From Bdellovibrionales bacterium (GTDB taxonomy: Bacteria; Bdellovibrionota; Bdellovibrionia; Bdellovibrionales; UBA1609), in NCBI GenBank assembly GCA_965116175.1, contig OZ220490.1, positions 1,283,548-1,347,547 of the forward strand: 64,000 nt of DNA, in the 5' to 3' direction. How positions within the stretch are numbered: position 1 is the stretch's first letter; each line of letters opens with the position of its first letter. The notes below the pieces were generated by a model, which searched no databases, was not told where the DNA came from, and was given only the letters and a program-made list of their open reading frames with translations. The translations under genes and the position numbers were made by a program. Positions 8,881 to 48,601 of this stretch are shown here, one piece after another.

Positions 8881-10470
8881 TCATTTTTTCTCTTTGGATA
8901 AAAACAGATGATAAAATCTTTCTGAGCCAAAAGGCTTTATGACATAACCTTTAACTCTTGGTGAAAGGGCTACATATTTATAGGCATGAGCAATGGGAAT
9001 AAGAGGAATATCCTGATTAAAAACAACCTGCGCTTTTTTATAAAGCTGTTCCGCTTTTTTCTGACTGGCTGTGATCATAGCCTTCACAATAAATTGATCA
9101 TATTTTTTGTTACACCACCGGGATAAATTGGAGCCTGAGGCAATAGCGTCACAAGTTAACAGAATCTGCAGAAAATTACTGGGGTCAGCAATATCCGCCG
9201 ACCAGCCCAACTGAATCATTTCATGCTCCCCCTGAGAGCTTTTAGCCAGATAAGTCGGCCAATCATAAGTGACAAGCTGGACAGATATACCCACTTTTTT
9301 TAAATCCGCCTGCATCAGCTCCCCCATTTTTTTCCCATTAGGATTGTAGGGGCGGGAAACAGGAAGCGTCCAAAGCTTCACTTTGAAGCCTTTTTCAAAA
9401 CCGGCAGACTTTAAAAGCTGTTTGGCTTTTTCAGGATTGTACTCTGGAAGCCTGACTTTTGAGTTGTGCCCCCAAAGAGCCGGAGGGACAGGGGTATCCA
9501 AAGTTTCAGCAAGCCCTTTGTAAATGGCTGAAATATAAAGCTTTCGGTTAAGGGCATGGGCAATGGCCTTACGGACTTTTTTATTATTTAAAGGGGCTTT
9601 TGAAGTATTCATAGAGAGATAACCTAGATTGTGATCCATTCCCTCCATAACACGAATGTTTTTATGCTTTTTCATAGCAGGGACATCTGTTGGCTGAGGC
9701 TTAGCTGAAAAATGACATTCCCCTCTTTTAAGCTTTTGAAAACGAACACTGGGATCAGGTGTTATAGAAAAAACAATTCTCTTCAGTTTTGCAGGGCCAA
9801 GGTAATAATTTTCATTTCTCTTATAACGAATAAGATTCCCTTTAACATATTTTTCCAAAATAAAGGGGCCTGTTCCCACAGGCTCAAAATCTATCTTTCC
9901 CGCCTGCTTCTTCTCTAAAAGAAAATCAGCATACTCTTTGGACAAAATAACAGCAAACTCCATAGCCATAATTTTAGGAAATAACAGCATTGGTTTTTTT
10001 AAAACAAATTGAACTATGTAATCATTAACTTTTTTTAGGGCCACAATTTGATTGTGTAAATCAAGAGACTGAAAAAACTTATAGCCTCCGCCGTTTATAC
10101 TGTAAAAAGAATGCTTTTTGTTTTTTTGCCGATTGAAAGAGAACAAAACATCATCCGCATTAAAAGGACGTGAAGGTTTAAAGCCTCCTCTGGGGTAAAA
10201 CTGAACATTTTTTCTTAAATGAAATGTATAGGTTTTTTTATCTTTGGAGAGAGTCCATTTTTTTGCCAAACCAGGAATCAGCTTTTTCCCTTCAAGATCA
10301 AATTCCATAAGACGGCTGTAAAGCAAATTACTGGCATCAAAGGCGGAACCGCTGAGAGACATTTGAGGGTTAAAGTAATCCGGACTGGCCTCAGAACAGT
10401 AAATTAAAGTTTCACAAACAGAAAAACCAGGAATTAAAAAAAGAGCTACGCTTAAAAATATACTTTTCAT
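8881..10470 (-). CDS. ABC transporter substrate-binding protein, family 5 (peptide/nickel, DppA/OppA-like)
   Basis: 529 aa with a signal peptide. The overall pattern is typical of SBP_bac_5 (ASPDYFNPQ, WTLSKDKKTYTFHLRKNVQF, GPF.. region). Confidence 0.85.
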   Translation of the reverse strand: MKSIFLSVALFLIPGFSVCETLIYCSEASPDYFNPQMSLSGSAFDASNLLYSRLMEFDLEGKKLIPGLAKKWTLSKDKKTYTFHLRKNVQFYPRGGFKPSRPFNADDVLFSFNRQKNKKHSFYSINGGGYKFFQSLDLHNQIVALKKVNDYIVQFVLKKPMLLFPKIMAMEFAVILSKEYADFLLEKKQAGKIDFEPVGTGPFILEKYVKGNLIRYKRNENYYLGPAKLKRIVFSITPDPSVRFQKLKRGECHFSAKPQPTDVPAMKKHKNIRVMEGMDHNLGYLSMNTSKAPLNNKKVRKAIAHALNRKLYISAIYKGLAETLDTPVPPALWGHNSKVRLPEYNPEKAKQLLKSAGFEKGFKVKLWTLPVSRPYNPNGKKMGELMQADLKKVGISVQLVTYDWPTYLAKSSQGEHEMIQLGWSADIADPSNFLQILLTCDAIASGSNLSRWCNKKYDQFIVKAMITASQKKAEQLYKKAQVVFNQDIPLIPIAHAYKYVALSPRVKGYVIKPFGSERFYHLFLSKEKK

Positions 10471-12611: not shown

Positions 12612-13979
12612 ATGAAAAAAACTTTTGTCAGTTTTATCTGTCTGATCTTTTGCTTTTCAGCTTCTGCAAAAATTTATGTCAATATAGGCGCTCCTAAAAA
12701 AGTAAAAAAAAGCCTGATTGCTATTTCCCCTTTTGTCCTTCAGGACTTAAATCCTAACTCGGACAAATTGATCATAGGCCAGGAGATGACCGAAAGGTTT
12801 AAAAAAAATCTAAAATTTTCTGCTTATTTTAATCTTTTATCCCCTAAAGCCTTTATAGAAAATCCTATTAAAAAATCCCCTTTTCCCTATCCTAAAGATC
12901 CTGATGGTTTCCGCTGGCAAAATTGGAAACTTATAGGAGCTGATTTTCTCTTTTTTGCAAATTATTCCATTCAGGAAGATGTGATGTTGATCAATGCATC
13001 CTTTCACAATGTTAATCTACAGAGAACCTTTTTTAGAAAAAAATACACAATCAATATCAACCAATCTTCTCAAGCTGTAGATAAAATATCCAATGACATT
13101 ATGAAAAGCCTTACCGGTAAAAATGGTGTCTTTGAAACACAAATACTAAGTGTAAGAAACACAGGCGGAACAAAAAAAGAGCTTTTTATAATGGATTGGA
13201 ATGGTGAAAACAAAAGAAGATTAACTTACCATCGCTCTATCGTTGTGTCTCCAGCCTGGTTTAATGACAAAAGCAAAGTGGCTTATAGCGCCTTTGTTTA
13301 CAATAAAAAACTAAAAAAAAGAACAGCCACTTTATTTATGTATGATTTTAAAACAAACAAAATAAAAATTTTATCCAGTCAAAATGGCGCAAATTTAGGA
13401 TCAGACTTCTTTCCCAGAGGTCAAAATATGCTTATTACTCTTGGCTCAGGAAAAGGTCTTTCAGATATTTTTAAATTAAATTTAAGATCTTTGACAACCA
13501 CTCCCCTGACAAAAGGCCCTTGGGGAGTTATCAATGTAGAGCCCAGCATTCACCCACAGACAAGAAAAATTGCTTTTTCCTCAGATAAGGGAGGCAATAC
13601 CATGATCTATGTCATGAATCCCAGTGGCAATAATGTTAAACAGTTGACTTTCTCCGGCACTCATAATTCCAATCCTGATTGGCACCCGGAAAAAGATGAA
13701 TTGGTCTTTTCCGGTCTATCCAACGGACGAATGGATTTATTTCTTATCTCTTCTAAGGGAACTCGTTTAAAAAGGTTAACAAGTTTAAAAAAAGCAAATG
13801 GCCGTTGGGCAAATTGTGAATCACCAAGTTTTTCACCTGATGGAAGGTTTGTTGTTTTTAGCAGTGATATTTCAGGCGCCTACCAGCTTTATGTCATAAG
13901 TTTGGAAGACCTCTCTATTGAAAGAATTACTTTTGATCGCTACAATTACAAGTCTCCAAAATGGTCTCCCTATTTTTAA
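12612..13979 (+). CDS. tolB: TolB-like periplasmic beta-propeller protein
   Basis: The ATG at 12612 gives the signal peptide MKKTFVSFICLIFCFSASA. Repeated propeller-blade motifs: SPAWFNDKSKVAYS, NPDWHPEKDELVFS, SPSFSPDGRFVVFSS, SPKWSP. Confidence 0.8.
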   Translation: MKKTFVSFICLIFCFSASAKIYVNIGAPKKVKKSLIAISPFVLQDLNPNSDKLIIGQEMTERFKKNLKFSAYFNLLSPKAFIENPIKKSPFPYPKDPDGFRWQNWKLIGADFLFFANYSIQEDVMLINASFHNVNLQRTFFRKKYTININQSSQAVDKISNDIMKSLTGKNGVFETQILSVRNTGGTKKELFIMDWNGENKRRLTYHRSIVVSPAWFNDKSKVAYSAFVYNKKLKKRTATLFMYDFKTNKIKILSSQNGANLGSDFFPRGQNMLITLGSGKGLSDIFKLNLRSLTTTPLTKGPWGVINVEPSIHPQTRKIAFSSDKGGNTMIYVMNPSGNNVKQLTFSGTHNSNPDWHPEKDELVFSGLSNGRMDLFLISSKGTRLKRLTSLKKANGRWANCESPSFSPDGRFVVFSSDISGAYQLYVISLEDLSIERITFDRYNYKSPKWSPYF

Positions 13980-14060
13980 ACAAGTATTCATACCACAATT
14001 TGTTGAGCTGTCAAATCGGCTGAAAATAACTTGATTATCTCCCTAAATTTAGCCTCCGTG

Positions 14061-14145
14061 ATTCTTGAACAGATAAAAGGCTTGTTTTTCATTGTAAATA
14101 CAATAAGTTAACCGAATCTTAAGTCAGCTTAAAGTGTCTTGAACC
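14061..14145 (-). repeat. about 85-bp dispersed repeat related to the leader of the IS1595-like fragment at 45.65 kb
   Basis: By eye, the reverse complement aligns at roughly four-fifths identity to 45646-45725. Shared blocks: ggttcaWgaYactttaag, ggttaac, ttgtatttaca, atgaaaaa, gttcaaga. Confidence 0.55.
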
Positions 14146-14589
14146 ATTTGTTAATTGCAGTTTTTATATGGTTTTAAGTTCATTTCTCCAAGCGCCAATA
14201 TATATCTTGCCACAAATCCAGATTTGAGTATAAAAAAACCCAGTTTTTCATAACCTTTTTACAAAAATCTTACAAAAAATAAAAAAATTTAAAAAAGGTT
14301 TAAAAAGTTCTTTGCCTATGGTATAGGTAAGGAGTATATGTTTCAGGAAAATTCTGAAGACTTTTCGGATAAGCGACCACAAAAGTCCACTCTACAATCC
14401 CTATTTTTAAAAATACTATCTTTTAAAGAGGTTTCTGACCTCCAGTAATTTATGTTTAAAAATCCAATTGTTTTTTTATTTCCCGATTTATATGTTCTTC
14501 GTTTAAATTTTTCCTGCTCGGTTTTTTTATTCAAGGTGAAAAATATGACTTTAAATCCCATACTAACTATATTTTAATCTGGCTGTCCT

Positions 14590-26907: not shown

Positions 26908-27549
26908 TTACCCATTTTTATCATCTGTCTTATTTTTTCTGTTTTCCACAATATGATCTATAAGACCTAGTTCTTTTGCTTCCTCAGCTCCCATATAGCG
27001 ATCCCTGTCCATCATCTTTGTAAGTTTTTCTACATTGTGACCTGTGTGCTTCGCATAAATGTTTGTAAGCTGTTTTTTTGTATAAGACATTTCCTTTGCA
27101 TGAATTTCAATATCACTCACCTGCCCTGAAATTCCCGAGCCTGCAATAAGAGGCTGATGAACCATCGTTCTAGCATTAGGGAGAATATATCTCTTGTTTT
27201 TAGCTCCTGCACAGAGAAGCATAGATCCCATACTTGCTGCCAAGCCTATACAATAAGTGGCTACATCACAACGAACAAATTGCATAATATCATAAATGGC
27301 AAGACCTGCATGAACACTGCCCCCAGGGGAGTTGATATAAAGATTTATATCCTGAGAGGCATCCTGCATTTCTAAAAAAAACATTTGGGCAATAACACTG
27401 TTGGCAATATTGTCATCAATACCTGTGCCTAACATAATAATTCTGTCTTTTAAAAGACGGGAATAAATGTCGTAGCTTCTCTCCCCTTTTGGGGTTTGCT
27501 CAATAACTATAGGGACTAAAGACAAAACAAGCTCCTGCTCTTCAAACAT
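26908..27549 (-). CDS. clpP: ATP-dependent Clp protease proteolytic subunit
   Basis: Contains [30 protein letters not shown] (Ser) and MVHQP (His). The ATG at 27549 (MFEEQ) gives a canonical N-terminus. The track start at 27609 (GTG) would add 20 aa. Confidence 0.9.
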
Positions 27550-27554
27550 GAGTT

Positions 27555-27696
27555 TTAAAACATTGATTCTATCTGTTTTTTCAGCTTTTTTTAGGAACAA
27601 CGCTGACACACAATTCCAAAAAATCCCAGACTTTTTTAAGACAAAATCAATATAACAGCTTGTCGGCTTTTTTGGATTGAACTTAAATTTTTTTAT
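27555..27696. repeat. direct repeat copy 1 (clpP 5' and upstream region)
   Basis: 27571-27658 is identical over 88 bp to 30092-30179. Flanking similarity with a few mismatches extends the repeat to about 142 bp. Confidence 0.9.
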
Positions 27697-28017: not shown

Positions 28018-29736
28018 TTATTTTTTCTCTTTATTTTTTAAATAGTTTTTAAGCAGTTCATTAATTGAAATTTCAGGTAATTTTGACTTTTGTCTCACTC
28101 TCCAATCTCTTCTTCTTTCCCCTTTTTCCATAAAACCGTTTTTTTCCCATTGTTGAAACAGCTTTGATAATTGCACTATTTCTGATTGACTGTTAGATAA
28201 ACCAAAAAGTTGTCTTGCCTCTTTGTTTGTTATATAACCGTCCCGATTTTCTCGATATGCATGATTTTGTAATATTTCTTTAAATTTATTTTCTTCTGCT
28301 TTTGAAAATACTTTTGACTCCTGACCTTCTAGTTGAACTTTTACCCATCGCTTTAAAAGAATTTTTGCTACTGGTTTTTTCTTGTTTTTTTGCGGGTATT
28401 CAGTTGTTAATAAGAAAGGGGAATCATTATTTGAAAGAATCTCACTAATAAGTTTTTTGTGATACTCATCTATGCAGCTAAAAATTTCTTCCAGAGTTTT
28501 ATCTCTCCACAATACCAAAGCCGCTGAAATTTTGTATTTATCTGTATTGCTTTCATATAGTCTTTTAAACTTTTTAAGGAGCTTTAAAAAATTTTTATTT
28601 GGTTCTTCGTTATATATAGTTACTGACCATATACCATAATTATCTGAGACTTTTTGATATTCAAAGAGAGGTTCTCTTCTTCCACTTTCAATCATATATT
28701 TAAAAATTTTATTTTTTCCTGTTCCAAATTCATCAGAGAACTTAGCTTTCCTTAAAACTTTCATTAAGAAAGGATTATAAGAAAAATGAACTTGAGAGAA
28801 TTTTTTATTGATAAAAGCTGTAGCTTTGGCTGAACAGTAATTTGAAATCTTAATTCTGTTTCTATACAATTCTACTGTTGCTTCTCTTTCTCTTTTTTCA
28901 AAAGCAGAATGGGCAACAGCATTAACAAGCACTTCTCTTAAAACAGAATCAGGATATGGTTTTTCTTCTGTAATAGACAAAGAACCGGGTCTTAAACTGA
29001 TTCCTTTAGTTCTTGTCCATGACTGAATATGTTGGATAAAGTCTTCTTTTAGTAAAGAGTATAGACCTTTTTTCTCATCTTGATCTGTAAGTTCAGATTT
29101 CTGATTATAATGCGCAACTCTAAAAGAAAAATCTCCAAATAAAATTCCTGAAACATTTTTATCTTTTATATTCAGTTTAGACAAAACATTGTCTGCTGAT
29201 AATTTCACCCAATCTTCACTGCCATTTTTTAAGAATTTTGCAAAATCTAAAACTAAAGAAGAAGTAACTTTACCTTTGTAATTAAGACTTGAAAAATCAA
29301 AGCCAGGGCGGTTTAATTCCAATTCTTGTTGTTCTCCTAGAGTCATCTCTTCTGTTCTTGATCCTACTCTTTTATAAAATTTTCCATTCCAAGAAACTAC
29401 TGCTTTGGGGTTTATGATTTCAATAAGTATAAATTTTTTGTTATTTACATTTTCAACAGAAATAGATTGCACTGTGGAATTAGGTTCAAGATATTGACTG
29501 ATATGATTTTCTATATAAGCTTCTTGTTTTTTTACCCAATCTGAGGATTTATCCAATAAAAGACCTTTATCATCAGTACCGATAATCAACCATCCACCAT
29601 CTTCTTCATTGCCAATAGCAGAGATGCTTTTCCCATGATTTTGATGCCATTTGGACTTGAACTCCACATTTGTGTTTTCAGTTAATTGCTGAGAAGATAA
29701 TTTTTCTAACAAGACTGCTTTCGTGTTGGAATTCAT
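28018..29736 (-). CDS. AlbA_2/Schlafen-like DNA-binding domain protein with HATPase_c_4-like region and C-terminal wHTH-like tail
   Basis: 572 aa. The N-terminus ENTNVEFKSKW...SISAIGNEEDGGWLIIGTDDKG matches the AlbA_2 pattern (E.K...A.aN..GG.l.iGv.d.G). The middle region VLREVLVNAVAHSAFEK...VELYRNRIKISN matches the pattern of RecG-like 'ATP-dependent DNA helicase' transcriptional regulators. Confidence 0.7.
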   Translation of the reverse strand: MNSNTKAVLLEKLSSQQLTENTNVEFKSKWHQNHGKSISAIGNEEDGGWLIIGTDDKGLLLDKSSDWVKKQEAYIENHISQYLEPNSTVQSISVENVNNKKFILIEIINPKAVVSWNGKFYKRVGSRTEEMTLGEQQELELNRPGFDFSSLNYKGKVTSSLVLDFAKFLKNGSEDWVKLSADNVLSKLNIKDKNVSGILFGDFSFRVAHYNQKSELTDQDEKKGLYSLLKEDFIQHIQSWTRTKGISLRPGSLSITEEKPYPDSVLREVLVNAVAHSAFEKREREATVELYRNRIKISNYCSAKATAFINKKFSQVHFSYNPFLMKVLRKAKFSDEFGTGKNKIFKYMIESGRREPLFEYQKVSDNYGIWSVTIYNEEPNKNFLKLLKKFKRLYESNTDKYKISAALVLWRDKTLEEIFSCIDEYHKKLISEILSNNDSPFLLTTEYPQKNKKKPVAKILLKRWVKVQLEGQESKVFSKAEENKFKEILQNHAYRENRDGYITNKEARQLFGLSNSQSEIVQLSKLFQQWEKNGFMEKGERRRDWRVRQKSKLPEISINELLKNYLKNKEKK

Positions 29737-29882: not shown

Positions 29883-30083
29883 AGACGACATGAGGCTTAA
29901 AATCATTGATTTTACAGGATTTTTTTAGACGGCTGGAACCATAATCAACTGTATGAAGTCAGACGACATGCAGACGACATAAGGATTAAAATCATTGATT
30001 TTACAGAACTTTTTTAGACGACTGGAGCCATAATCAGCTGTATGAAGTCAGACGACACGCAGACGACATGAGGCTTAAAATCA
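29883..30083. repeat. tandem repeat, 89-bp unit, about 2.25 copies
   Basis: Unit starts fall at 29883, 29972 and 30061 (agacgacatRagg...). Each unit boundary carries a doubled 11-mer, cagacgacaYg cagacgacatR. An extra solo agacgacata lies at 29811. Confidence 0.9.
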
Positions 30084-30217
30084 TTGATTTTATCTGTTTT
30101 TTCAGCTTTTTTTAGGAACAACGCTGACACACAATTCCAAAAAATCCCAGACTTTTTTAAGACAAAATCAATATAACAGTTTGTCGGTTTTTTTGGCTTG
30201 AACCTTAATTTTTTTGA
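30075..30217. repeat. direct repeat copy 2 (duplicate of the clpP 5' and upstream region)
   Basis: See copy 1. It ends at aaccttaattttttt (30201-30215), where the sequence switches to amidohydrolase-derived DNA. Confidence 0.9.
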
Positions 30218-30416
30218 AGAAATGGGGACAGAGGCAAAATTACAGGCTCTTAAATATGGAAATGAGTTTCCAAAAACCCAACAGATATTTAAAATGCAAA
30301 TCTTGAAGGAGCGAGGACTATGAGTTTGGAAAAAGAGATTGGCAGTATTGAAGTGGGAAAACGGGCTGATATTATTGTTTTGGATTTAAAACAAGCCTCT
30401 TTTCATCCTTTTTACA
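30216..30416 (+). pseudogene. fragment of MtaD-like amidohydrolase gene (paralogous to 44251-44473)
   Basis: Translates to EEMGTEAKLQALKYGNEF..QQIFKM..., then after a frameshift MSLEKEIGSIEVGKRADIIVLDLKQASFHPFY. The intact gene reads EEMGTGAKLQALKYGDECLTAQQIFKMASLEGARAMGLEKEIGSIEVGKRADIIALDLNHASFHPFY. Confidence 0.85.
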
Positions 30417-30523
30417 GAGTTTTTTTTGGATGGATTTTTGTCTGTCATCAAAACTTCACATCCGGATTTAGCCAATACAACTCCTAAAGATAAGCCTATA
30501 CACCCTGAACCAATAATTGTCAT
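30417..30523 (-). pseudogene. 5' fragment of the UDP-glucose dehydrogenase-family gene (paralogous to 42651-42760)
   Basis: The minus strand reads MTIIGSGCIGLSLGVVLAKSGCEVLMTDKNPSKK. The intact gene reads MKVSIIGSGRIGLSLGVVLAKSGCEVLMTDKDPSKK. Confidence 0.85.
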
Positions 30524-30536
30524 TTTACACCCTCCT

Positions 30537-40003: not shown

Positions 40004-40177
40004 ATGAAAAAACTATTTATAATTTTATTTTTATTTCTAAGCTGTGAAACGCACTTAGAGACAAAACGAGTTTGTATATTACCTCCTGGAAAAAAAATTG
40101 AAGATGTTGATTATAGCAACCTAGAATATGACAAAGAATGTGAGATTTGGGAGGAACATGAGCATACTATTTAAGTT
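40004..40177 (+). CDS. small putative lipoprotein (57 aa, below the ORF-track cutoff)
   Basis: ATG at 40004 follows aaggaagag. MKKLFIILFLFLSC has a lipobox-like L-S-C. Confidence 0.4.
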
Positions 40178-40454
40178 CATTTTATTTTTTTCTTTAAATT
40201 CCTATGCTAATAAAATTGAGAGTTTAATAAAAGAATTTGATAGCGGAAATACTAGATTTTGCTTTGTCCCTTACAAAGAGAGGTGTGTGAAATCTTTTAG
40301 AAGTCCAGCAAAATTTAGGGTTTCAAGAAGAATTTACTCAGCTATTAGCACAAGGACAAAGATTGTAAATGATCACTTTGATTCTCCAATTGTGGTATTT
40401 CAAGCAAGCCAAAGTTTTATAGAATATAGGAGATTGACGGATCGAGTTGTCTAG
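40158..40454 (+). CDS. small hypothetical secreted protein
   Basis: The internal ATG at 40158 of track ORF 40128..40454 gives the signal-peptide-like MSILFKFILFFSLNSYA. It overlaps the end of the upstream small ORF. Confidence 0.4.
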   Translation: MSILFKFILFFSLNSYANKIESLIKEFDSGNTRFCFVPYKERCVKSFRSPAKFRVSRRIYSAISTRTKIVNDHFDSPIVVFQASQSFIEYRRLTDRVV

Positions 40455-40474
40455 TTGAAATGGAGGTCAGGACA

Positions 40475-41056
40475 CTACATAGAAAGATAAAGGTTTAAAT
40501 TTTTATCCAGCTTTTTTAAAAGAGTCTGCTTTTCCTCCCCGTCCATTTCAAAACCCTGATGCTCCTTTAAAGCACTTTTTAAAATTTCAGGATGAGCCAA
40601 TTCCTTGGGTAAAACCCCCTGTAAAAATAAAATTTTAATTTGAAAAAACAACTTTAAAGAATCCAAAGAGGGACTATTTTGCGCCAGCATAAGAGCATTG
40701 CCAAGAAGATGAAACAACTCCTCCGAATCTTCTGTTCCCTCCTGGCTGATCTCATCAAGGACTTTTAAAAAATAAAGTGCTAAACTTAAACGATTATAAT
40801 CCTTTCGGAGATTGGGAAAATCCTCTAAAAACCAAGCCTGCTGCAGCCTGTGAAGAGATTTTTTGGAAGGGCGATATTCTAATTCAATATAAGCTGTAGG
40901 CTCTAAAACACCTCCCGAAAAGCGTTTTTTACTTTTTAAAGCCCCTTTAACTATAAAAGAAAGTTGACAGCCCTTTGCATTTAAACCCCGAACTATCAGA
41001 TCAGATTCAGAAAAAGGCTGATTTTTTAAAACAATAATACGATCGCGAATGAGCAT
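40475..41056 (-). CDS. recO: DNA repair protein RecO (short form)
   Basis: 193 aa. The N-terminal OB-fold pattern IVLKNQPFSESDLIVRGLNAKGCQLSFIVKGALKSKKRFSGGVLEP is typical of RecO. Confidence 0.8.
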   Translation of the reverse strand: MLIRDRIIVLKNQPFSESDLIVRGLNAKGCQLSFIVKGALKSKKRFSGGVLEPTAYIELEYRPSKKSLHRLQQAWFLEDFPNLRKDYNRLSLALYFLKVLDEISQEGTEDSEELFHLLGNALMLAQNSPSLDSLKLFFQIKILFLQGVLPKELAHPEILKSALKEHQGFEMDGEEKQTLLKKLDKNLNLYLSM

Positions 41057-41304
41057 TGTATGCTAAATCTTGTTTGAAATTTTCAGTTTTTGTGCTTTTA
41101 TTATCTAAATAAATATCCATTTATCAAGTGAAATTTGGTTTGGTTCCTAATGACTAGACACTTCCAATGGAAAAAAAATTCTGATTCAAAGCTTTTTGCT
41201 TTAAATTCCTTTTCTTTTATAGTATTTTGCCTTACTCAGCTTCTATATTGAAAAAGAGATATAATGAAAAAAATTACAACTCAATAAAATTTATAGGTGA
41301 AGTG

Positions 41305-42489
41305 ATGAAAACTCATAACAGTATGAAAATTTTAGTTCTTTTTGGTTTAGTATTTTCGCAATTAGGTTTTGCAAATAAAGAAAAACGGCCTTTACCAAAT
41401 GGACAATTTCAATCTCTTTTTACAAATCGAGAAGATTATCCGGCTGTTGTGCAAATCTACAATAAATTTGGTTTTGGGACTGCTTTTTTTATTAGTCCTG
41501 AACTTGTGGTTACAAATTTCCATGTTATTCTTTTGGATTTTAAAGATTCAATAGATAACACTTTTATAGAAACTGTGAATGAAAAAGAAATTCCAATCAA
41601 ATCAATTGTTGCTCTTGACGGTATAAATGATTTAGCTATTTTACAAGTGAAAGATTACCAATCTGAAGACTATTATGAGCTTCGTTTTAATAATAAACCA
41701 ACAAGTTTAAATCAAAAAGTTCACACAATGGGTTTCCCTGGGGGTGAGTTTAGGTATGGACAGGGGAATATTCATAAAAAAACTTCTAACAACATTTATG
41801 CTAATATTCAAGGAATGAGGCCAGGATTCAGTGGTTCGCCGGTATTTTCCAATACAGGAGAGTTAGTTGGTGTTCTTAGCGTCTCAACAGGATATAGTGT
41901 AGGTTTAGTGTCTTTTGAAAAATTAAAGGAACTTTTATCTAAAGGTTCTTTGAATTGTGATTCCAGTATTTGTATAAGTGAAGAGATAGGGAGAATTAAA
42001 GACTTAGCAGAACAAGGAGATAGAAAGGCTCAATTTATGTTAGCGAGAATGTATTTTGAAGGTCTAGGAGTGGAGCAAAATTATGAAGAGGCTTTTAAAT
42101 GGTTTGAGATGGCAGCTCTTCATATAGAGGCTCAATTTAATTTAGCGGTAATGTATTTGGAAGGTATAGGAGTAAAGAAAAATTATGAAGAAGCTTTTAA
42201 ATGGTTTGAGATGGCAGCTCTTCAAGGAGATAGAAAGGCTCAATTTGAATTAGGGTACATGTATTTTGAAGGTTTAGGAGTGGAGCAAAATTATGAAGAG
42301 GCTTTTAAATGGTTTGAGATGGCAGCTCTTCAAGGAGATAGAAAGGCTCAATTTGAATTAGGGTACATGTATTTTGAAGGTTTAGGAGTGGAGCAAAATT
42401 ATGAAGAGGCTTTTAAATGGTTTGAGATGGCAGCTCTTCAAGGAGATATGGAGGCTCAATCTTATTTAGATAAGTATTTTAAAAGGTAG
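41305..42489 (+). CDS. secreted trypsin-like serine protease domain fused to 4 Sel1 repeats (paralog of 30537..32282)
   Basis: ATG at 41305 follows aggtgaagtg. Same signal peptide and triad contexts as the paralog (VVTNFHVI, NDLAILQV, GFSGSPVF). Four Sel1 units and the identical tail EAQSYLDKYFKR. Confidence 0.85.
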   Translation: MKTHNSMKILVLFGLVFSQLGFANKEKRPLPNGQFQSLFTNREDYPAVVQIYNKFGFGTAFFISPELVVTNFHVILLDFKDSIDNTFIETVNEKEIPIKSIVALDGINDLAILQVKDYQSEDYYELRFNNKPTSLNQKVHTMGFPGGEFRYGQGNIHKKTSNNIYANIQGMRPGFSGSPVFSNTGELVGVLSVSTGYSVGLVSFEKLKELLSKGSLNCDSSICISEEIGRIKDLAEQGDRKAQFMLARMYFEGLGVEQNYEEAFKWFEMAALHIEAQFNLAVMYLEGIGVKKNYEEAFKWFEMAALQGDRKAQFELGYMYFEGLGVEQNYEEAFKWFEMAALQGDRKAQFELGYMYFEGLGVEQNYEEAFKWFEMAALQGDMEAQSYLDKYFKR

Positions 42490-42620
42490 AGGAGTGGAGC
42501 AAAATGATGAAGAGGCTTTAAAATGGCTTGAGAAGGCAGCTCTTCAATAAGATATGGAGGCTCAATTTTAAATTAGCGAACATGTATTTTGAAGGTGAGG
42601 AGTGGAGCAAAATGACAATT
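42490..42620 (+). pseudogene. decayed Sel1 repeat units downstream of the stop codon
   Basis: The sequence after the TAG still reads GVEQNDEEALKWLEKAALQ*DMEAQF*..MYFEG.GVEQND, with stops and frame breaks. Confidence 0.8.
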
Positions 42621-42647
42621 ACTTATTTATGATTATCTTTTAAAGTT

Positions 42648-44048
42648 ATGAAAGTTTCAATTATTGGTTCAGGGCGTATAGGCTTATCTTTAGGGGTTGT
42701 ATTGGCTAAATCCGGATGTGAAGTTCTGATGACAGACAAAGATCCATCCAAAAAAAAATCTGTAACAGGTGAATCCCTGTCCTTTTATGAGCCAAATTTA
42801 CAAAATGACATAAAAGAAAGTCAAAACAATCTGGAATGGACAAGCTACACAGAAAAAATCATCTCTTCTGATTTAATCTTTTTATGTTTAAGCGCTCCAT
42901 TAAACAAGTCAGGGGATCTGAATTTAACAGAAATTCTGGAATGGGCAAAACTCATTGCTGAAAACACTAAAAAAGAAAAACTCTTGATCATTAAAAGCAC
43001 TCTTCCCATTGGAACAAACCAAAAAATTCATTCTATTGCTAAAGAGAGAAAAGCCCCTTTATCTGTTATCACCTGTCCTGAATTTTTAAGACAGGGGCAG
43101 GCTTTAAAAGATATGTATTCCCCTGAGAGAATTGTTATTGGATCAAGAGATTTACATATAGGCAAAAAATTGGAAGCGCTTTATAAAAAATTCTCAAATC
43201 CAAAACACATTATTCATACAGATCCGGAAACAGCAGAATTGTCAAAACTAGCCTGCAATTCTTTTTTAGCTGTAAAAATCAGTTTTATCAATGAGTTTGC
43301 AGGACTTTGTGAACAAGTGAAGGCTAATCCTAAAACATTACAACTTATTTTAGGAACAGATCCTCGTATAGGGAAAGATTTTTTAAACTCTGGTCTCGGT
43401 TATGGAGGCTACTGTCTTCCCAAGGATATTCAGTTAAGTGTCCGTGAAGGGCAAAAAAGAAGTCAAAATATGAACATATTAAAGAGCGCTCAACAAATAA
43501 ATAACTCCCTTACAAAAGAATTTTTCCAAAAGATCAAACAGCATTATAAAAATTTAAAGTTTATTTCTCTGGCTTTTTGGGGCCTCAGTTTTAAACAAAA
43601 TACAGACGACTTAAAAAACTCCCCGGCTTTAAATTTACTTTGCCAGCTTCTAAAAATAGGAGCTGAAATTCATGTTTATGATCCTCTCTTTATTAAAGAA
43701 AAAACTTTTATGTTTTTTAAAAGTGATTTAAAAAAACAGGGGGTTTATTTTAATAAGTTTTTTAAAGTCCTGCCTGTTCAAAAAGAGGATCAAATAAGTT
43801 TTTTAAAACAAAAAATAATGGCTGGAAAAGTTTTATTTCACAAAACAGCTCTGGACAGTCTTGATGGCAGACAGGGGTTGATCATTGGTTCCGATTGTGA
43901 GGAATTTAAGCAAATTTCTCTATCACAAATTAAACAGAAACTCAGTCAACCTTTTCTTGTTGACGGCAGAAACCTGTTTTCAGCAAAGGATTTACAAAAA
44001 GAAAATTTCTCTTTTTATCAAAGAGGATACTCTTTTATAAAAAAATAA
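42648..44048 (+). CDS. UDP-glucose/GDP-mannose 6-dehydrogenase family protein
   Basis: N-terminal Rossmann IIGSGRIGLSLG and catalytic Cys context GYGGYCLPKD. Confidence 0.88.
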   Translation: MKVSIIGSGRIGLSLGVVLAKSGCEVLMTDKDPSKKKSVTGESLSFYEPNLQNDIKESQNNLEWTSYTEKIISSDLIFLCLSAPLNKSGDLNLTEILEWAKLIAENTKKEKLLIIKSTLPIGTNQKIHSIAKERKAPLSVITCPEFLRQGQALKDMYSPERIVIGSRDLHIGKKLEALYKKFSNPKHIIHTDPETAELSKLACNSFLAVKISFINEFAGLCEQVKANPKTLQLILGTDPRIGKDFLNSGLGYGGYCLPKDIQLSVREGQKRSQNMNILKSAQQINNSLTKEFFQKIKQHYKNLKFISLAFWGLSFKQNTDDLKNSPALNLLCQLLKIGAEIHVYDPLFIKEKTFMFFKSDLKKQGVYFNKFFKVLPVQKEDQISFLKQKIMAGKVLFHKTALDSLDGRQGLIIGSDCEEFKQISLSQIKQKLSQPFLVDGRNLFSAKDLQKENFSFYQRGYSFIKK

Positions 44049-44068
44049 CTTTTTAAATATCTGAATTT

Positions 44069-45391
44069 TTAATCAAATGATCTTTTAGTTGATTTTAAAA
44101 AATCTTTAATTTTGCCGGCAAAAAACTCACTCTCTTTGAAAACCTTTTGTTTATCCAAAGTTTTTAGCTTATAGTTCTCCATTAAAACCCGGCCTTCACA
44201 CATAACAAAACTCACTTCATTTCCCAAAGCTGTATAAACAATGTTTGAAATGGGATTGTAAAAAGGATGAAAAGAGGCATGGTTTAAATCCAAAGCAATA
44301 ATATCAGCCCGCTTTCCCACTTCAATACTGCCAATCTCTTTTTCCAAACCCATAGCCCTCGCTCCCTCAAGGCTTGCCATTTTAAATATCTGTTGGGCTG
44401 TTAGACACTCATCTCCATATTTAAGAGCCTGTAATTTTGCCCCTGTCCCCATCTCTTCAAAAAAATTTAAGTTATTGTTAGAGGCTGAGCCGTCTGTCCC
44501 CAAGCCTACAACAACACCTTTTTCCAAAGCCTGTCCAACAGGCGCTATGCCATTGGAAAGCTTCATATTGCTTTCAGGGTTATAGGAAAGGGATGTTTGT
44601 GTTTTGGACATGATTTCTAAATCTTTTTCATTCACATGAACACAATGAACAAATAAAGAATTTTTACCTGTCACTCCCAAACTGTGAAGATGCTGGACAG
44701 GGGTTTTGTTATATCTTTTTTTAATTTCTTCTTGCTCCCATACACTTTCTGAAACATGGATGACAAGAGGCAGATTTTCTGATTTGGAAAACTCTCCTAT
44801 TTCCAAAAGAGTTTTTGGCTCCACAGTGTAAGGCGCATGGGGAGCAATACCTATATGAACTCTAGGATGATCTTTAAAAAGGTTTTTTATATCCAATGTT
44901 TTTTTCCTCCATTCCATCCAATCCTTTTCCACACTGGGAACACCTAATCCCACAATTCCCCTTAAACCAGATTCATCTAAAACCTCAGCAATAGCTTTGT
45001 TATAAAAATACATATCGTAACAGGAAGTTATGCCGGATCGGATAAGCTCCACTAAAGAGAGTTTTGTACCCGCCCGGACAAAATCCTCTTTCACCAAGCC
45101 CTCTTCCAAAGGGAAAATATAATCTTCCAGCCAAACTTTTAAAGAAAGATTATCTGCCAATCCTCTAAATAAAGACATTGGGAGATGTGTATGGGTGTTA
45201 ACAAACCCCGGACAAACTAAATGATTTTTTAAATGGTAAGTCTGTTTTGCTTTTAAGCTGGATGAAGGTCCCCCAAGATAAGAAATCCGCCCCTGCTGCA
45301 AACCAACAGCTCTATTAGATTCAAGGACAAATTCATCCTCTTTACATATTAAAATTTTGTCACATAATAAAAGGCTATCGTATTCCTGCAT
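44069..45391 (-). CDS. amidohydrolase, 5-methylthioadenosine/S-adenosylhomocysteine deaminase (MtaD)-like
   Basis: ATG at 45391 (MQEYDSLLL); the track's 60-aa N-terminal extension runs into repeat DNA. Contains GFVNTHTHLPMSLFRGLADN, HVSES and GLGTDGSASNN. Confidence 0.85.
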   Translation of the reverse strand: MQEYDSLLLCDKILICKEDEFVLESNRAVGLQQGRISYLGGPSSSLKAKQTYHLKNHLVCPGFVNTHTHLPMSLFRGLADNLSLKVWLEDYIFPLEEGLVKEDFVRAGTKLSLVELIRSGITSCYDMYFYNKAIAEVLDESGLRGIVGLGVPSVEKDWMEWRKKTLDIKNLFKDHPRVHIGIAPHAPYTVEPKTLLEIGEFSKSENLPLVIHVSESVWEQEEIKKRYNKTPVQHLHSLGVTGKNSLFVHCVHVNEKDLEIMSKTQTSLSYNPESNMKLSNGIAPVGQALEKGVVVGLGTDGSASNNNLNFFEEMGTGAKLQALKYGDECLTAQQIFKMASLEGARAMGLEKEIGSIEVGKRADIIALDLNHASFHPFYNPISNIVYTALGNEVSFVMCEGRVLMENYKLKTLDKQKVFKESEFFAGKIKDFLKSTKRSFD

Positions 45392-45425
45392 AATTTTTTT
45401 ATACTGATCCTGTTTGAAGTTTCCA

Positions 45426-45608
45426 CCTGAGTTCGCCCTTTTGACCTTTAATCTAGTATTATAACATTTTAAAAACTTTATAAATACAAAGATTTTTATT
45501 TTTTTTCCTAGTATGTCTATTTTTTCCCAATATGTCCTCTGACATAAATAAAACATAGTAAAATCAATCATTTATAGGAATCAGGATCTTTGAAAGGGCG
45601 AACTCAGG
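45426..45608. repeat. 16-bp perfect inverted repeat pair enclosing 151 bp (MITE-like or long hairpin)
   Basis: cctgagttcgcccttt (45426-45441) pairs with aaagggcgaactcagg (45593-45608). Confidence 0.6.
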
Positions 45609-45645: not shown

Positions 45646-45984
45646 GGTTCATGATACTTTAAGTGGCCTTAAAAGTTGGTTAACCTATATTGTATTTACA
45701 TGAAAAATAAGTATTGGTTCAAGACTAGTTAAGCCTACTGTGATAGGAGTTAATGAGTTGAAATGACTGGAAAAAACAAGTATTTTACCCTTTCCCGCAT
45801 TTCTGAGAAGAAATTTAGGGAAATAATCAAGCTCTTTTCAGCCGATCTGACAGCCTCTCAAATAACTTTTTTGACACAAACAAACAGAAATACAATCCAT
45901 AAAATTCTAAAAAATATCAGGATGAGAATCTGTGAGATTTGTGAAAAAGAAACTCCTCTTGAAAAGGGTTTTTCAACAGTCTGA
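45646..45984 (+). mobile_element. truncated IS1595/IS1016-like element: duplicated leader plus the first 73 codons of the transposase
   Basis: MTGKNKYFTLSRISEKKFREIIKLFSADLTASQITFLTQTNRNTIHKILKNIRMRI resembles the IS1016-type N-terminus (SRLSxYKQNKLIELFVAGVTARTAAELVxVNKNTAAFYFHRLR). The ORF stops where the TIR element begins. Confidence 0.6.
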
Positions 45985-45985
45985 C

Positions 45986-46286
45986 GACATGATCTGACAC
46001 CTGTTGAAAAATCCTTTAAAACTTAACCCCATTAAGTTTTATTAAGTATAGACTTGATCCTTTCTTTTTTTAAGCCAAAAAGTAAAATGTATCTCTTGAA
46101 AAGCCCATCACCTTACAGGCTCTTGACACATTACCGAGTTGTTCTGCTAAATTCAGCAAACCAACTTTATTCTTTATGATTTTTCTGTTAGTTTCTATCA
46201 TGGGTTACCTCCTTTATGTTTTGATAGATTTACATCCTTATCAAAACGGGTAACCCTGATCTTTTCAAACAGTGTCAGATCATGTC
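45986..46286 (-). mobile_element. 301-bp miniature element with 15-bp perfect terminal inverted repeats, carrying a truncated HTH transposase N-terminus
   Basis: TIR gacatgatctgacac at 45986-46000, with its reverse complement at 46272-46286. The minus-strand ORF 46070..46201 has a perfect SD (aaggaggtaacccATG) and reads MIETNRKIIKNKVGLLNLAEQLGNVSRACKVMGFSRDTFYF, then a stop. Confidence 0.65.
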
Positions 46287-46459
46287 TTAACTAGTACACC
46301 TAATACCATGGTACCATGGACATTCTTTATTTTGTGACCTGTGGCAGTATCTGCATGACACAAAAAAGAAAAAAACAAACTTGAAAAAATAAGCCACAAA
46401 AATGCTTCCATATTATAATCTCGCTCTTTTACTGGTTTAATGGACTGATTAGTATTTCT

Positions 46460-46849
46460 TTAAAGTTCAAAGGGGATTTCCTGTGAAAGGCTTATTTGTT
46501 TTCTGATATTTTTTATTTTTTTTAATCTCGCCTCTAAAATAGATTTCTGCTGCTTTTTAAACTTTTTATACTCTCTTTTATAGTTTAAAAAAGCCTGTTT
46601 CCGGCGATCTTCAAATTGTTTTTTTTTCTCTTCATATTCAAGAAAAGCTTTTTCTTTCTGCAAAGAATCTCCTTGTGCCCTAATTTTTTTCAATTCTTTT
46701 AATCTCTTTTTCAAAAGATTTTTTCTTTTATTTTTAAACATTTCCTGTTTATTTTTATGTTTTAAAAAGGAGGGGTGCATTCCCATGACTGAAAAGGAAA
46801 AAGCGGGAAAGCAAAGTAAAGCAAACAAAATATAACAAAGCAATCGCAT
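46460..46849 (-). CDS. hypothetical secreted Lys-rich coiled-coil protein
   Basis: Signal peptide MRLLCYILFALLCFPAFSFS followed by highly charged K/E/R heptad-like sequence. Confidence 0.5.
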   Translation of the reverse strand: MRLLCYILFALLCFPAFSFSVMGMHPSFLKHKNKQEMFKNKRKNLLKKRLKELKKIRAQGDSLQKEKAFLEYEEKKKQFEDRRKQAFLNYKREYKKFKKQQKSILEARLKKIKNIRKQISLSQEIPFEL

Positions 46850-47019
46850 AAAGTAAATATACCCTGTTTTAAAAACTTGTAAAAGAATAAATAAGCAACT
46901 GGACTTTAATTGATCAACATAAAACCTGTCTCATAAATACAAATATAGAACAGAACCATACCATGAATGCAGCCCAGGCATGACACAAAAACAATGTGAG
47001 GACTTAAAAAAAATTTAGT

Positions 47020-47769
47020 TCAAACAGAATCAGTATATGCCGGAGCCTTGCCTTTTGCCTTAGGTATAAGTTCTTCCAAACTCAAACCTGTTAAAATTTT
47101 TAGCTTTTTTAAAATCCACCAAAGCAAAAAAACCGTAATAAAAGTTAAGGGCAGAGCAATAAAAACATAGCCCATCCAAGTCATATCTGCCACCTGTTCA
47201 TTAATAAGCTGTCTTTTTGTTTCCTCATCAAGTTGGGGATCAATATCCTTAAAAACCCAAATGGCAATTACAAAATTTAAAACAGCGCTTAACACAAAGG
47301 AGCCACTTAACGCCAAAGTGGAAGTATTCATAAGTTTTTCAAAATCTTTTTCCTTATTGTTTTCTTCAAGTTTATTTTTAATAAGATCAGTATCAAAAAG
47401 TGAGGTTTTAAAAACAAAAAGCTCAGCCAATGGTTTTTTTAAAAAAATAGAACCCAAGGCAACAAAAGCCAAAACCATAGGAATAGCGCCCTCTTTAATG
47501 GCAAAATAAATGCCTTCAAGCTGGAGCAAAGCCAATCCCCCTGTAAGGGCAATACTGACAAGACCAATAAGAGAAACAGCATTAATTTTTCTGGCTATTA
47601 TAAAATCCTTTAATCCATATAAAAAAGGGAAGGCTAAAGCAATAAGCAAAACATAAACAGGAGCGGATTCAGAGGATATAAATTGTTGCCCTTTATTTAA
47701 TACAACAACAGGCAAAACAATATTAAAACCTAAATTATAAAAAGGATTTTCTTTTTTAGACTGTATCAC
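47020..47769 (-). CDS. hypothetical polytopic membrane protein
   Basis: 249 aa with about 6 hydrophobic segments. The N-terminus ENPFYNLGFNIVLPVVVLNK is reminiscent of VC0807/septation-protein-like families (from memory, unverified). Confidence 0.55.
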   Translation of the reverse strand: MIQSKKENPFYNLGFNIVLPVVVLNKGQQFISSESAPVYVLLIALAFPFLYGLKDFIIARKINAVSLIGLVSIALTGGLALLQLEGIYFAIKEGAIPMVLAFVALGSIFLKKPLAELFVFKTSLFDTDLIKNKLEENNKEKDFEKLMNTSTLALSGSFVLSAVLNFVIAIWVFKDIDPQLDEETKRQLINEQVADMTWMGYVFIALPLTFITVFLLWWILKKLKILTGLSLEELIPKAKGKAPAYTDSV

Positions 47770-47798
47770 AAGACGCTGATGTATTTAATGTAAAGATT

Positions 47799-48113
47799 TT
47801 ATTTTGAAAGGGAATGCTGTTGGCTTCTGGTTTTATTCCAAGTAATGATTTTATCAAGAAACTGTTGTTGAAGGGACTCTATAGAATCTGAAATTCTATC
47901 TTTTTTGGAATAAATTTCAAAAGAACAAGTTCCCGCAGATGAAACTTTTAAACGAGCTTCATAAAGCTTCCCTTTTTTAGTAAGAGAAGCTGTTTTTTTG
48001 GAATCACTGGGAGCGCGGCTCTCAATAAGACTGTAAAAAAACTGGCTCTGTTCTTTGACAGAATTATTGGGAATAAAGCCATTAAATTGAAAGTTATTTA
48101 GTTCTTTGCTCAT
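47799..48113 (-). CDS. hypothetical protein, possibly ribosome hibernation factor (HPF/RaiA)-like
   Basis: 104 aa. The C-terminal pattern LKVSSAGTCSFEIYSKKDRISDSIESLQQQFLDKIITWNKTR loosely follows the HPF beta-alpha layout. This is a weak call. Confidence 0.3.
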   Translation of the reverse strand: MSKELNNFQFNGFIPNNSVKEQSQFFYSLIESRAPSDSKKTASLTKKGKLYEARLKVSSAGTCSFEIYSKKDRISDSIESLQQQFLDKIITWNKTRSQQHSLSK

Positions 48114-48388
48114 GGCTTAATCATAGCAAAGAAACCTATATTAAAGTCAATCAAGCAAAATTATTGCAGTGCATTAAATTACATTTTCTGTCAAAAAAAT
48201 GACAAACTGTCAAAAAAACTATTACTCAAACTTATTTTTCAATTTACTTATAGTTATATAAGCCCCTTTCTTATGATTTTACATCTCTCTTAATAAAGGG
48301 AAATCTTAAAATTGCTTATAAAGATTAAATCAAATAAGAGCCATATCAAAACCAACAAACTTAATTTGTAGAATATTTAAACAAATCT

Positions 48389-48601
48389 TTACTGTAAAGA
48401 GTGATTTTTTACCCTAACCACAGTCATACAACTATGGCATTGAGCTCTCTCTACAACAAAGTGACTTTGAGGCAAATACTCAACATGAGTATCTAAAGCT
48501 TTCCCACAGAGATAACATTCATTTTGCACCTTAAGGAAATCCTTTTTTGTTGTATTTTGACTTTTTTCTTCTGGTTTATTTTTTTGGCTGTATTTACTCA
48601 T
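48389..48601 (-). CDS. small zinc-ribbon protein
   Basis: 70 aa with two CxxC pairs (CYLCGK ... CHSC). Confidence 0.45.
   Translation of the reverse strand: MSKYSQKNKPEEKSQNTTKKDFLKVQNECYLCGKALDTHVEYLPQSHFVVERAQCHSCMTVVRVKNHSLQ

Follow-up and report, generated by a model that had tools for sequence, protein, structure and literature searches.

An inverted segmental duplication of a secreted protease–Sel1 gene around a housekeeping block in an uncultured Bdellovibrionales bacterium, a probable product of past illegitimate duplication

INTRODUCTION

On the 1,894,270-bp chromosome of an uncultured Bdellovibrionales bacterium, two genes encoding a serine protease fused to Sel1 repeats lie in inverted orientation on either side of a block of housekeeping genes. 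The question raised by this locus is whether the inverted arms form a switch or are the remains of an old duplication. According to the original prediction, homologous recombination between the arms would flip the 8.8-kb block and, with no dedicated invertase, move the protease 5′ parts and promoters onto the alternative Sel1 arrays in a shufflon-like form of variation. Here, we analysed the 64,000-nucleotide stretch of contig OZ220490.1 that contains the locus (hereafter, the window) and compared its gene order with that of relatives. The structure is very probably the product of a past illegitimate duplication, and not a switch.

RESULTS

Extent and content of the inverted duplication

By BLASTN and repeat finding of the window against itself, positions 30204–32405 were identified as an inverted, partly deleted copy of positions 41179–44485. 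Three blocks, all collinear and inverted, were detected with E-values from 0 to 1e-45, far beyond chance:

Block 1, left 30204–30416 versus right 44471–44257, 91.6% identity: an internal piece of the amidohydrolase gene
Block 2, left 30412–30519 versus right 42765–42658, 95.4% identity: the first ~36 codons of ugd
Block 3, left 30520/30951–32405 versus right 42613–41179, 87.8% gapped identity: the protease–Sel1 gene with ~112–123 bp of upstream sequence

The left arm is 2.2 kb and the right arm 3.3 kb in length, and the two carry diverged gene copies with mosaic identity. The arm coordinates proposed earlier (30216–32415 and 41172–44473) proved right to within ~10 bp, and the three inverted blocks bear out the proposed anatomy, an inverted segmental duplication whose left arm is degraded. 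The protease genes face outward as predicted, the left one starting at 32282 on the minus strand and the right one at 41305 on the plus strand. The genes of the arms and the spacer were identified with Pfam and NCBIfam, and rnpB with Rfam (199 bits); the arm genes encode a trypsin-like peptidase fused to Sel1 repeats, UDP-glucose dehydrogenase (ugd) and an amidohydrolase. The protease–Sel1 features, and the spacer between them, are as follows:

30537–32282, minus strand: left protease–Sel1 gene, 581 amino acids (aa), with a signal peptide, an S1B-like serine protease domain and nine Sel1 units of 108 bp
32283–32405, minus strand: duplicated upstream region of the left gene, forming the inner end of the left arm (arm alignment)
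32406–41178, no strand: single-copy spacer of 8,773 bp (Pfam, NCBIfam, Rfam)
41179–41304, plus strand: duplicated upstream region of the right gene, forming the inner end of the right arm (arm alignment)
41305–42489, plus strand: right protease–Sel1 gene, 394 aa, with four Sel1 units, between recO and ugd; identical to database protein P0007
42490–42622, plus strand: one decayed Sel1 unit 3′ of the stop codon of the right gene; the left arm is without it

The spacer carries a cold-shock-domain (CSD) open reading frame (ORF), orf200, rpsD, the L31 gene, rny, pdxH, rnpB, sodB, hisS, orf108 and recO, and the claim that a housekeeping block separates the arms is thereby confirmed.

The right arm lies at the ancestral site

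Three contigs of relatives (L154, L155 and L156) were reached through their ugd homologs, with 69–74% identity for ugd and 78–81% for recO. In all three, recO and ugd are divergent direct neighbours, separated by 46–100 bp that hold no protease gene. In the window, the intact ugd gene still adjoins recO on the far side of the right protease gene, and the conserved ugd leader TTTATGATTATCT is retained at 42625–42647:

42648–44048, plus strand: intact ugd at its ancestral site adjoining recO (Pfam and gene order of relatives)

The recO–ugd adjacency in the relatives indicates that the right arm occupies the ancestral site, that the protease–Sel1 gene was inserted there, and that the left arm is derived. 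As the reference sequence keeps recO beside intact ugd, no net arm-mediated inversion has been fixed in this genome. Comparison of gene order had been proposed as a check on the switch; in these three relatives it points to the reference orientation as the original one, and the alternative orientation was not found among them.

Exact-protein look-ups with recO, rpsD, P0007 and P0009 (a third paralog, described below) for further assemblies of the locus returned none on record. A metagenome scan with hisS gave a best match of 47%, that is, no close relative there, and in a scan of genomes with rny the nearest relative reached only 64% identity, with synteny confined to pdxH–rny–L31–rpsD. The proteins of the window are singletons in the protein collection. 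GC (guanine–cytosine) skew was uninformative as a record of orientation history, since it tracks the coding strand.

In the closest relative (ERZ25072543 contig_2; L154 and L157), compared with window positions 22974–44048, the recO–ugd and clpP–clpX–lon clusters lie ~28 kb apart, in opposite relative orientation and with entirely different genes between them; the lon–clpX–clpP–opp–abhydrolase synteny is kept on the other side.

The left arm carries decayed passengers and a novel junction

Apart from the protease gene, the left arm contains two dead gene fragments, which correspond to intact genes in or at the right arm:

30216–30416, plus strand: dead internal amidohydrolase fragment, matching right-arm 44459–44257, with a 1-nt frameshift
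30412–30519, minus strand: dead ugd 5′ fragment, its ribosome-binding site and ATG removed by a 42-bp deletion
44069–45571, minus strand: intact amidohydrolase gene, within which the right arm ends at ~44471–44485

The two fragments meet at a 5-bp TTACA microhomology, and the 1.49 kb matching right-arm 42766–44256 is gone. In the amidohydrolase, the Pfam domain does not start until residue 118, and the collection holds no exact match to the 500-aa product; the true start probably lies further downstream than that of the 500-aa ORF. The gene that is convergent with ugd in the relatives (389–427 aa, no Pfam domain; L154 11419–12702) is not homologous to the window amidohydrolase. Because the relatives carry a non-homologous gene there, the position of the amidohydrolase gene is lineage-specific.

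The outer end of the left arm is joined to a second copy of the region upstream of clpP:

27546–27694, minus strand: clpP start codon and upstream region, copy 1 (ancestral; ClpP by NCBIfam, homologous region in L157)
30066–30215, minus strand: clpP-upstream copy 2, 94.6% identical to copy 1, forming the outer end of the composite patch
30201–30215, no strand: novel junction J1 on the 15-bp microhomology AACTTAAATTTTTTT (three-way alignment)

The sequence AACTTAAATTTTTTT is common to the clpP upstream region and, inverted, to the amidohydrolase gene, where it coincides precisely with the end of the right arm (~44472–44486). In the relative L157, whose clpX is 91% identical, the clpP upstream region matches copy 1 through the 15-mer and ~20 bp beyond; since this homology extends past the 15-mer, copy 1 is the parental arrangement and the joint between copy 2 and the left arm is new. 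Both parental continuities have been kept, namely, copy 1 running into 27695 and onward, and the intact amidohydrolase gene. Two marks of a microhomology duplication were found here, a novel 15-bp junction with its parental continuities and a templated 150-bp insertion of arm-like divergence.

These junctions also bear on the possibility of an assembly chimera or mis-join as the source of the left arm, for which the absence of the left protease copy from the protein collection could be cited, although its neighbours on the same contig are present. The 15 bases shared at the outer junction are too few to mislead an assembler; the arms differ by 5–12%, and the left arm has a structure of its own (nine Sel1 units, three private deletions and a frameshift), with a divergence that matches the adjacent clpP-upstream repeat. 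An assembly artefact is therefore exceedingly improbable.

The clpP-upstream copies are accompanied by two further features:

28018–29736, minus strand: AlbA_2/HATPase_c_4 gene between the two clpP-upstream copies (PF04326 2.5e-13, PF13749 1e-7)
29883–30102, no strand: ~2.5 tandem 89-bp units, diverged partial copies of the clpP start region, with the motif GACGACATG

The two copies of the clpP start and its upstream sequence form a 150-bp direct repeat on either side of the AlbA_2 gene, and copy 2 points into the 89-bp repeats and this gene. In the relative, the AlbA_2 gene does not adjoin clpP. It may now be read from the duplicated clpP promoter.

Divergence of the arms since duplication

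The near-neutral parts of the duplication have similar identities: 94.6% for the upstream non-coding sequence, 95.4% for the ugd fragment, 94.6% for the clpP-upstream repeat and 92.0% for the amidohydrolase fragment. Neutral-site divergence between the arms is thus a uniform 5–8%, and the arms as a whole are 5–12% diverged. The first 145 protease codons are 95.5% identical. The 5′ halves are highly similar, as had been claimed, but this similarity is not special, being equal to the baseline of the non-coding and dead segments. The unusually diverged parts of the pair are instead a patch around the serine loop and the Sel1 arrays.

Over the protease part, synonymous divergence (dS) is 0.107 and nonsynonymous divergence (dN) is 0.093. 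Codons 145–210 around the catalytic serine (window 31650–31850 and 41740–41930) showed a dN of 0.27 against a dS of 0.17, and either diversifying selection acting on the specificity loops or gene conversion by a further paralog may account for this patch. The dS was ~0.05 in the first 145 codons versus ~0.17–0.19 downstream, a contrast drawn from ~15 synonymous differences. Gene conversion between the arms was considered as its cause and set aside, as a contrast from so few differences is only suggestive and three paralogs are too few for a topology test.

Both protease copies appear to be maintained, since the left ORF is unlikely to be open by chance (probability of no stop under neutrality, 0.001–0.06) and all of its internal indels are in frame. 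In the Sel1 arrays, the signature E-M-AAL was found in all four intact right units and E-K-AAL in all nine left units. Recent unit duplications are private to each array (L5/L6 at 99%, R1/R2 at 95%). These comparisons indicate that the two arrays evolve independently, with no unit exchange seen. The fixation of the K or M signature in each array, together with the 5–12% divergence, argues against frequent exchange between the arms.

The protease–Sel1 genes and their relatives

Both copies are complete, with the same ATG, a signal-peptide-like N-terminus, MKTHNSMK(F/I)LVLFGLVFSQLGFA, and common upstream sequence. Pfam matches were 7e-121 (left) and 8e-56 (right) for Sel1, and 9e-15 (left) and 2e-15 (right) for Trypsin_2. 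The catalytic triad H75/D112/S180 is invariant in the left copy, the right copy and the third paralog P0009, and the closest PDB structures are the staphylococcal proteases Jep (1.3e-8), V8 and Spl. From the triad and the repeat units, the products are predicted to be S1 (S1B-like) serine proteases with Sel1 repeats. The protease domain matches the staphylococcal V8/Spl/Jep S1B paralogs, and here, as in those, the paralogs differ most around the specificity loops; unlike those, the present genes have a C-terminal Sel1 array fused to the protease, and the copies are inverted and dispersed and do not form a tandem operon.

P0009 (426 aa) is encoded elsewhere on the same chromosome, outside the window. 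In the N-lobe, it shares 89.7% identity with the left copy and 83.3% with the right copy, and its first Sel1 region is partly degenerate. P0009 and the right copy are about equally close to the left copy. The protease–Sel1 family therefore numbers three or more genes on this 1.89-Mb chromosome, and the third paralog points to an actively expanding gene family. The same architecture was found in a few other database proteins (P0001, P0012, P0014, P0022 and P0118).

Within these genomes, Sel1 genes seem to move. In the more distant relative OZ241840.1 (L001 12573–13169), a Sel1-repeat gene is inserted between the L31 gene and rpsD.

The expected properties of a switch

Shufflons and other invertase-driven segments, such as the R64 Rci shufflon, the Hin and Gin systems and the Bacteroides invertons, rearrange DNA by means of dedicated recombinases. 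The present locus resembles them in having inverted genes with a similar 5′ part and differing 3′ parts. It differs in that neither a recombinase gene nor short crossover sites are present, both genes are complete, each with its own identical promoter region, and there are only two cassettes. Across the 64-kb window, no recombinase, integrase, invertase or transposase domain was detected in ORFs of 90 aa or longer; the only traces were decayed N-terminal transposase remnants at 45.7–46.3 kb, and the prediction that a dedicated invertase is lacking was correct in this respect. In the repeat analysis of the arms, no discrete pair of short conserved inverted sites stood out as bounding the spacer. 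The shufflon layout of one expressed 5′ part with silent 3′ cassettes was not found in the arms, which hold two complete genes with their own starts.

Inversion by general recombination has precedents in genes that lie as inverted pairs. In Salmonella, up to 50% of recombination events between tufA and tufB are inversions, and the tuf genes evolve in concert (PMC6735719); inverted hsdMS paralogs flip the Staphylococcus aureus chromosome through a repeat that is nearly perfect over 1,748 bp (PMC6778178). As in these systems (PMC6735719, PMC5485169, PMC6778178), two inverted gene copies are available here as potential crossover substrates. The longest exact match between the inverted arms is 106 bp, 31 matches are of at least 25 bp (overall identity 88–95%), and the arm genes encode secreted proteins with variable repeat arrays, all of which would favour flipping by RecA-dependent crossovers. 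However, the precedents use near-identical repeats that evolve in concert or have been seen to flip, whereas the present arms are 5–12% diverged and not homogenised, and their Sel1 units have not been exchanged. RecA-dependent recombination is reported to fall log-linearly with sequence divergence (PMC4824099). Neither concerted evolution nor chimeric copies, the signs of ongoing exchange, were seen between the arms, given their 5–8% neutral divergence and array-fixed signatures.

A flip would also change little, because the two arms have matching promoters and 5′ ends. The ~110 bp upstream of the two genes is 94.6% identical and has the same −10-like TATAGT; promoter scans gave counts not above those in shuffled sequence. 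The proposed swap of promoters by inversion is accordingly moot, and a crossover that moved the 5′ parts onto the other Sel1 arrays would trade near-identical sequence. Adding that only two cassettes exist and that the ancestral recO–ugd adjacency is kept in the reference, a shufflon-like invertible segment is unsupported, and flipping at a meaningful rate as a source of chimeric surface or secreted proteins is unlikely. It is very unlikely that in natural populations general recombination flips the block often enough to generate chimeric protease/Sel1 combinations that matter; if it did, a segmental duplication would have given rise to a two-state switch that needs no recombinase. Since the exact matches extend to 106 bp, RecA could on rare occasions invert the 8.8-kb block as a side effect.

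Older rearrangements and insertion-sequence debris around the locus

Gene order around mfd was compared with L146, L147 and L150–L153. Four relatives share the collinear order rnpB–pdxH–rny–L31–rpsD–s67–orf104–VC0807–orf129–mfd, while in the window the rnpB–rpsD core of the spacer (33507–37320) and the s67–orf129 block (46460–48601) both run in the reverse direction with respect to mfd, with ~9 kb separating them. This order would need a minimum of two older reversals that have no connection with the arms.

The inverted spacer core could be taken to mean that the arms are a by-product of spacer inversion with staggered breaks, in which breakpoint sequence is duplicated at both ends. This model needs recO to have been far from ugd beforehand, whereas in the relatives their adjacency is ancestral. 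Because the s67–orf129 block, which lies beyond the arms, has likewise been inverted in place and insertion sequence (IS) debris marks other breakpoints, the core inversion is better explained by separate older rearrangements, and an origin of the arms by staggered breaks is highly improbable. The ancestral recO–ugd adjacency likewise argues against flipping of the spacer by the arms as an explanation for the inverted core.

The IS debris lies just outside the right arm:

45690–46290, no strand: IS1595-like N-terminal remnant, interrupted by a ~300-bp element

The ~300-bp element has terminal inverted repeats GACATGATCTGACAC..TGTTGAAAA and carries an IS481/HTH_29-like remnant. The family matches are weak (IS1595, E 0.011; IS481, E 0.004), and HTH_29 alone passes the Pfam cut-off. 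Two further partial copies of the first, IS1595-like, element were found in the window, at 37407–37490 (plus strand) and 13962–14157 (minus strand). The motif GACGACATG is confined to the IS element end and the 89-bp repeats, with four matches against 0.04 expected. The neighbourhood is rearrangement-prone, with IS debris.

The translated rnpB–sodB intergenic sequence (37424–37687, minus strand) matches two intergenic sites of L154, at 2799–2912 and 9013–9123, over 37–38 aa with 47–51% identity and E-values down to 3e-9. This sequence may be a small repeat element of the clade.

DISCUSSION

The feature described here is an ordinary, moderately old inverted segmental duplication, a case of paralog birth in a rearrangement-prone, IS-scarred region. 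Its history would have begun with recO and ugd as divergent neighbours and a single clpP upstream region. A secreted serine-protease/Sel1-repeat gene would then have been inserted between recO and ugd. Next, a composite patch would have formed and been placed ~2.5 kb upstream of clpP, consisting of a 150-bp clpP-upstream copy fused, at the 15-bp microhomology, to an inverted copy of the protease gene, ugd and the 3′ part of the amidohydrolase gene. Because the clpP-upstream copy and the arm show the same divergence, one joint event is suggested for both, most likely a single complex replication template switch of the microhomology-mediated break-induced replication (MMBIR) or fork stalling and template switching (FoSTeS) type. 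Deletions at microhomologies (1.49 kb at TTACA, a further 42 bp and one decayed Sel1 unit), together with a frameshift, would have killed the ugd and amidohydrolase pieces. The second protease gene would have been kept by selection, its Sel1 array growing to nine units and the loops around the catalytic serine changing faster than synonymous sites, the outcome being a second, differently built secreted protease.

MMBIR/FoSTeS and the tandem-inversion duplications of bacteria are microhomology-mediated, replication-based complex duplications, the latter reportedly described by Roth and colleagues. Like these, the present locus has an inverted duplicate with a novel joint on a 15-bp microhomology, parental junctions that are kept, a templated 150-bp insertion from a nearby locus and later remodelling by deletions at microhomology (5 bp). 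It differs in that it is no symmetrical three-copy tandem-inversion duplication, the copies lie 8.8 kb apart, and the event is old and fixed in one genome and not an unstable amplification intermediate.

Several points weigh against this history. We infer the template-switch mechanism from the junctions alone, and the inner junction at 32405/32406 and that at 30065/30066 are AT-rich or repeated, with no clear microhomology. The dN/dS ratio near 0.9 could also reflect relaxed constraint on one copy. The left 581-aa protein was found in the protein collection neither by exact look-up nor by homology search, while other proteins of the same chromosome, including the right copy and ugd, are present; the source annotation may not call the gene, or the deposited sequence may differ. 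Finally, a single genome of the lineage is on record, which leaves room for inversion at the population level.

The locus offers a clean, datable case of growth of a secreted-protease family by a microhomology-guided copy-and-invert event, which left decaying passengers and a single surviving paralog whose repeat number and specificity loops are now diverging. It also illustrates that inverted repeats around essential genes need not be a switch, and that gene order in outgroups can identify the original arm. The practical value of these findings lies mainly in the annotation of a little-known, rearrangement-rich lineage of Bdellovibrionales.

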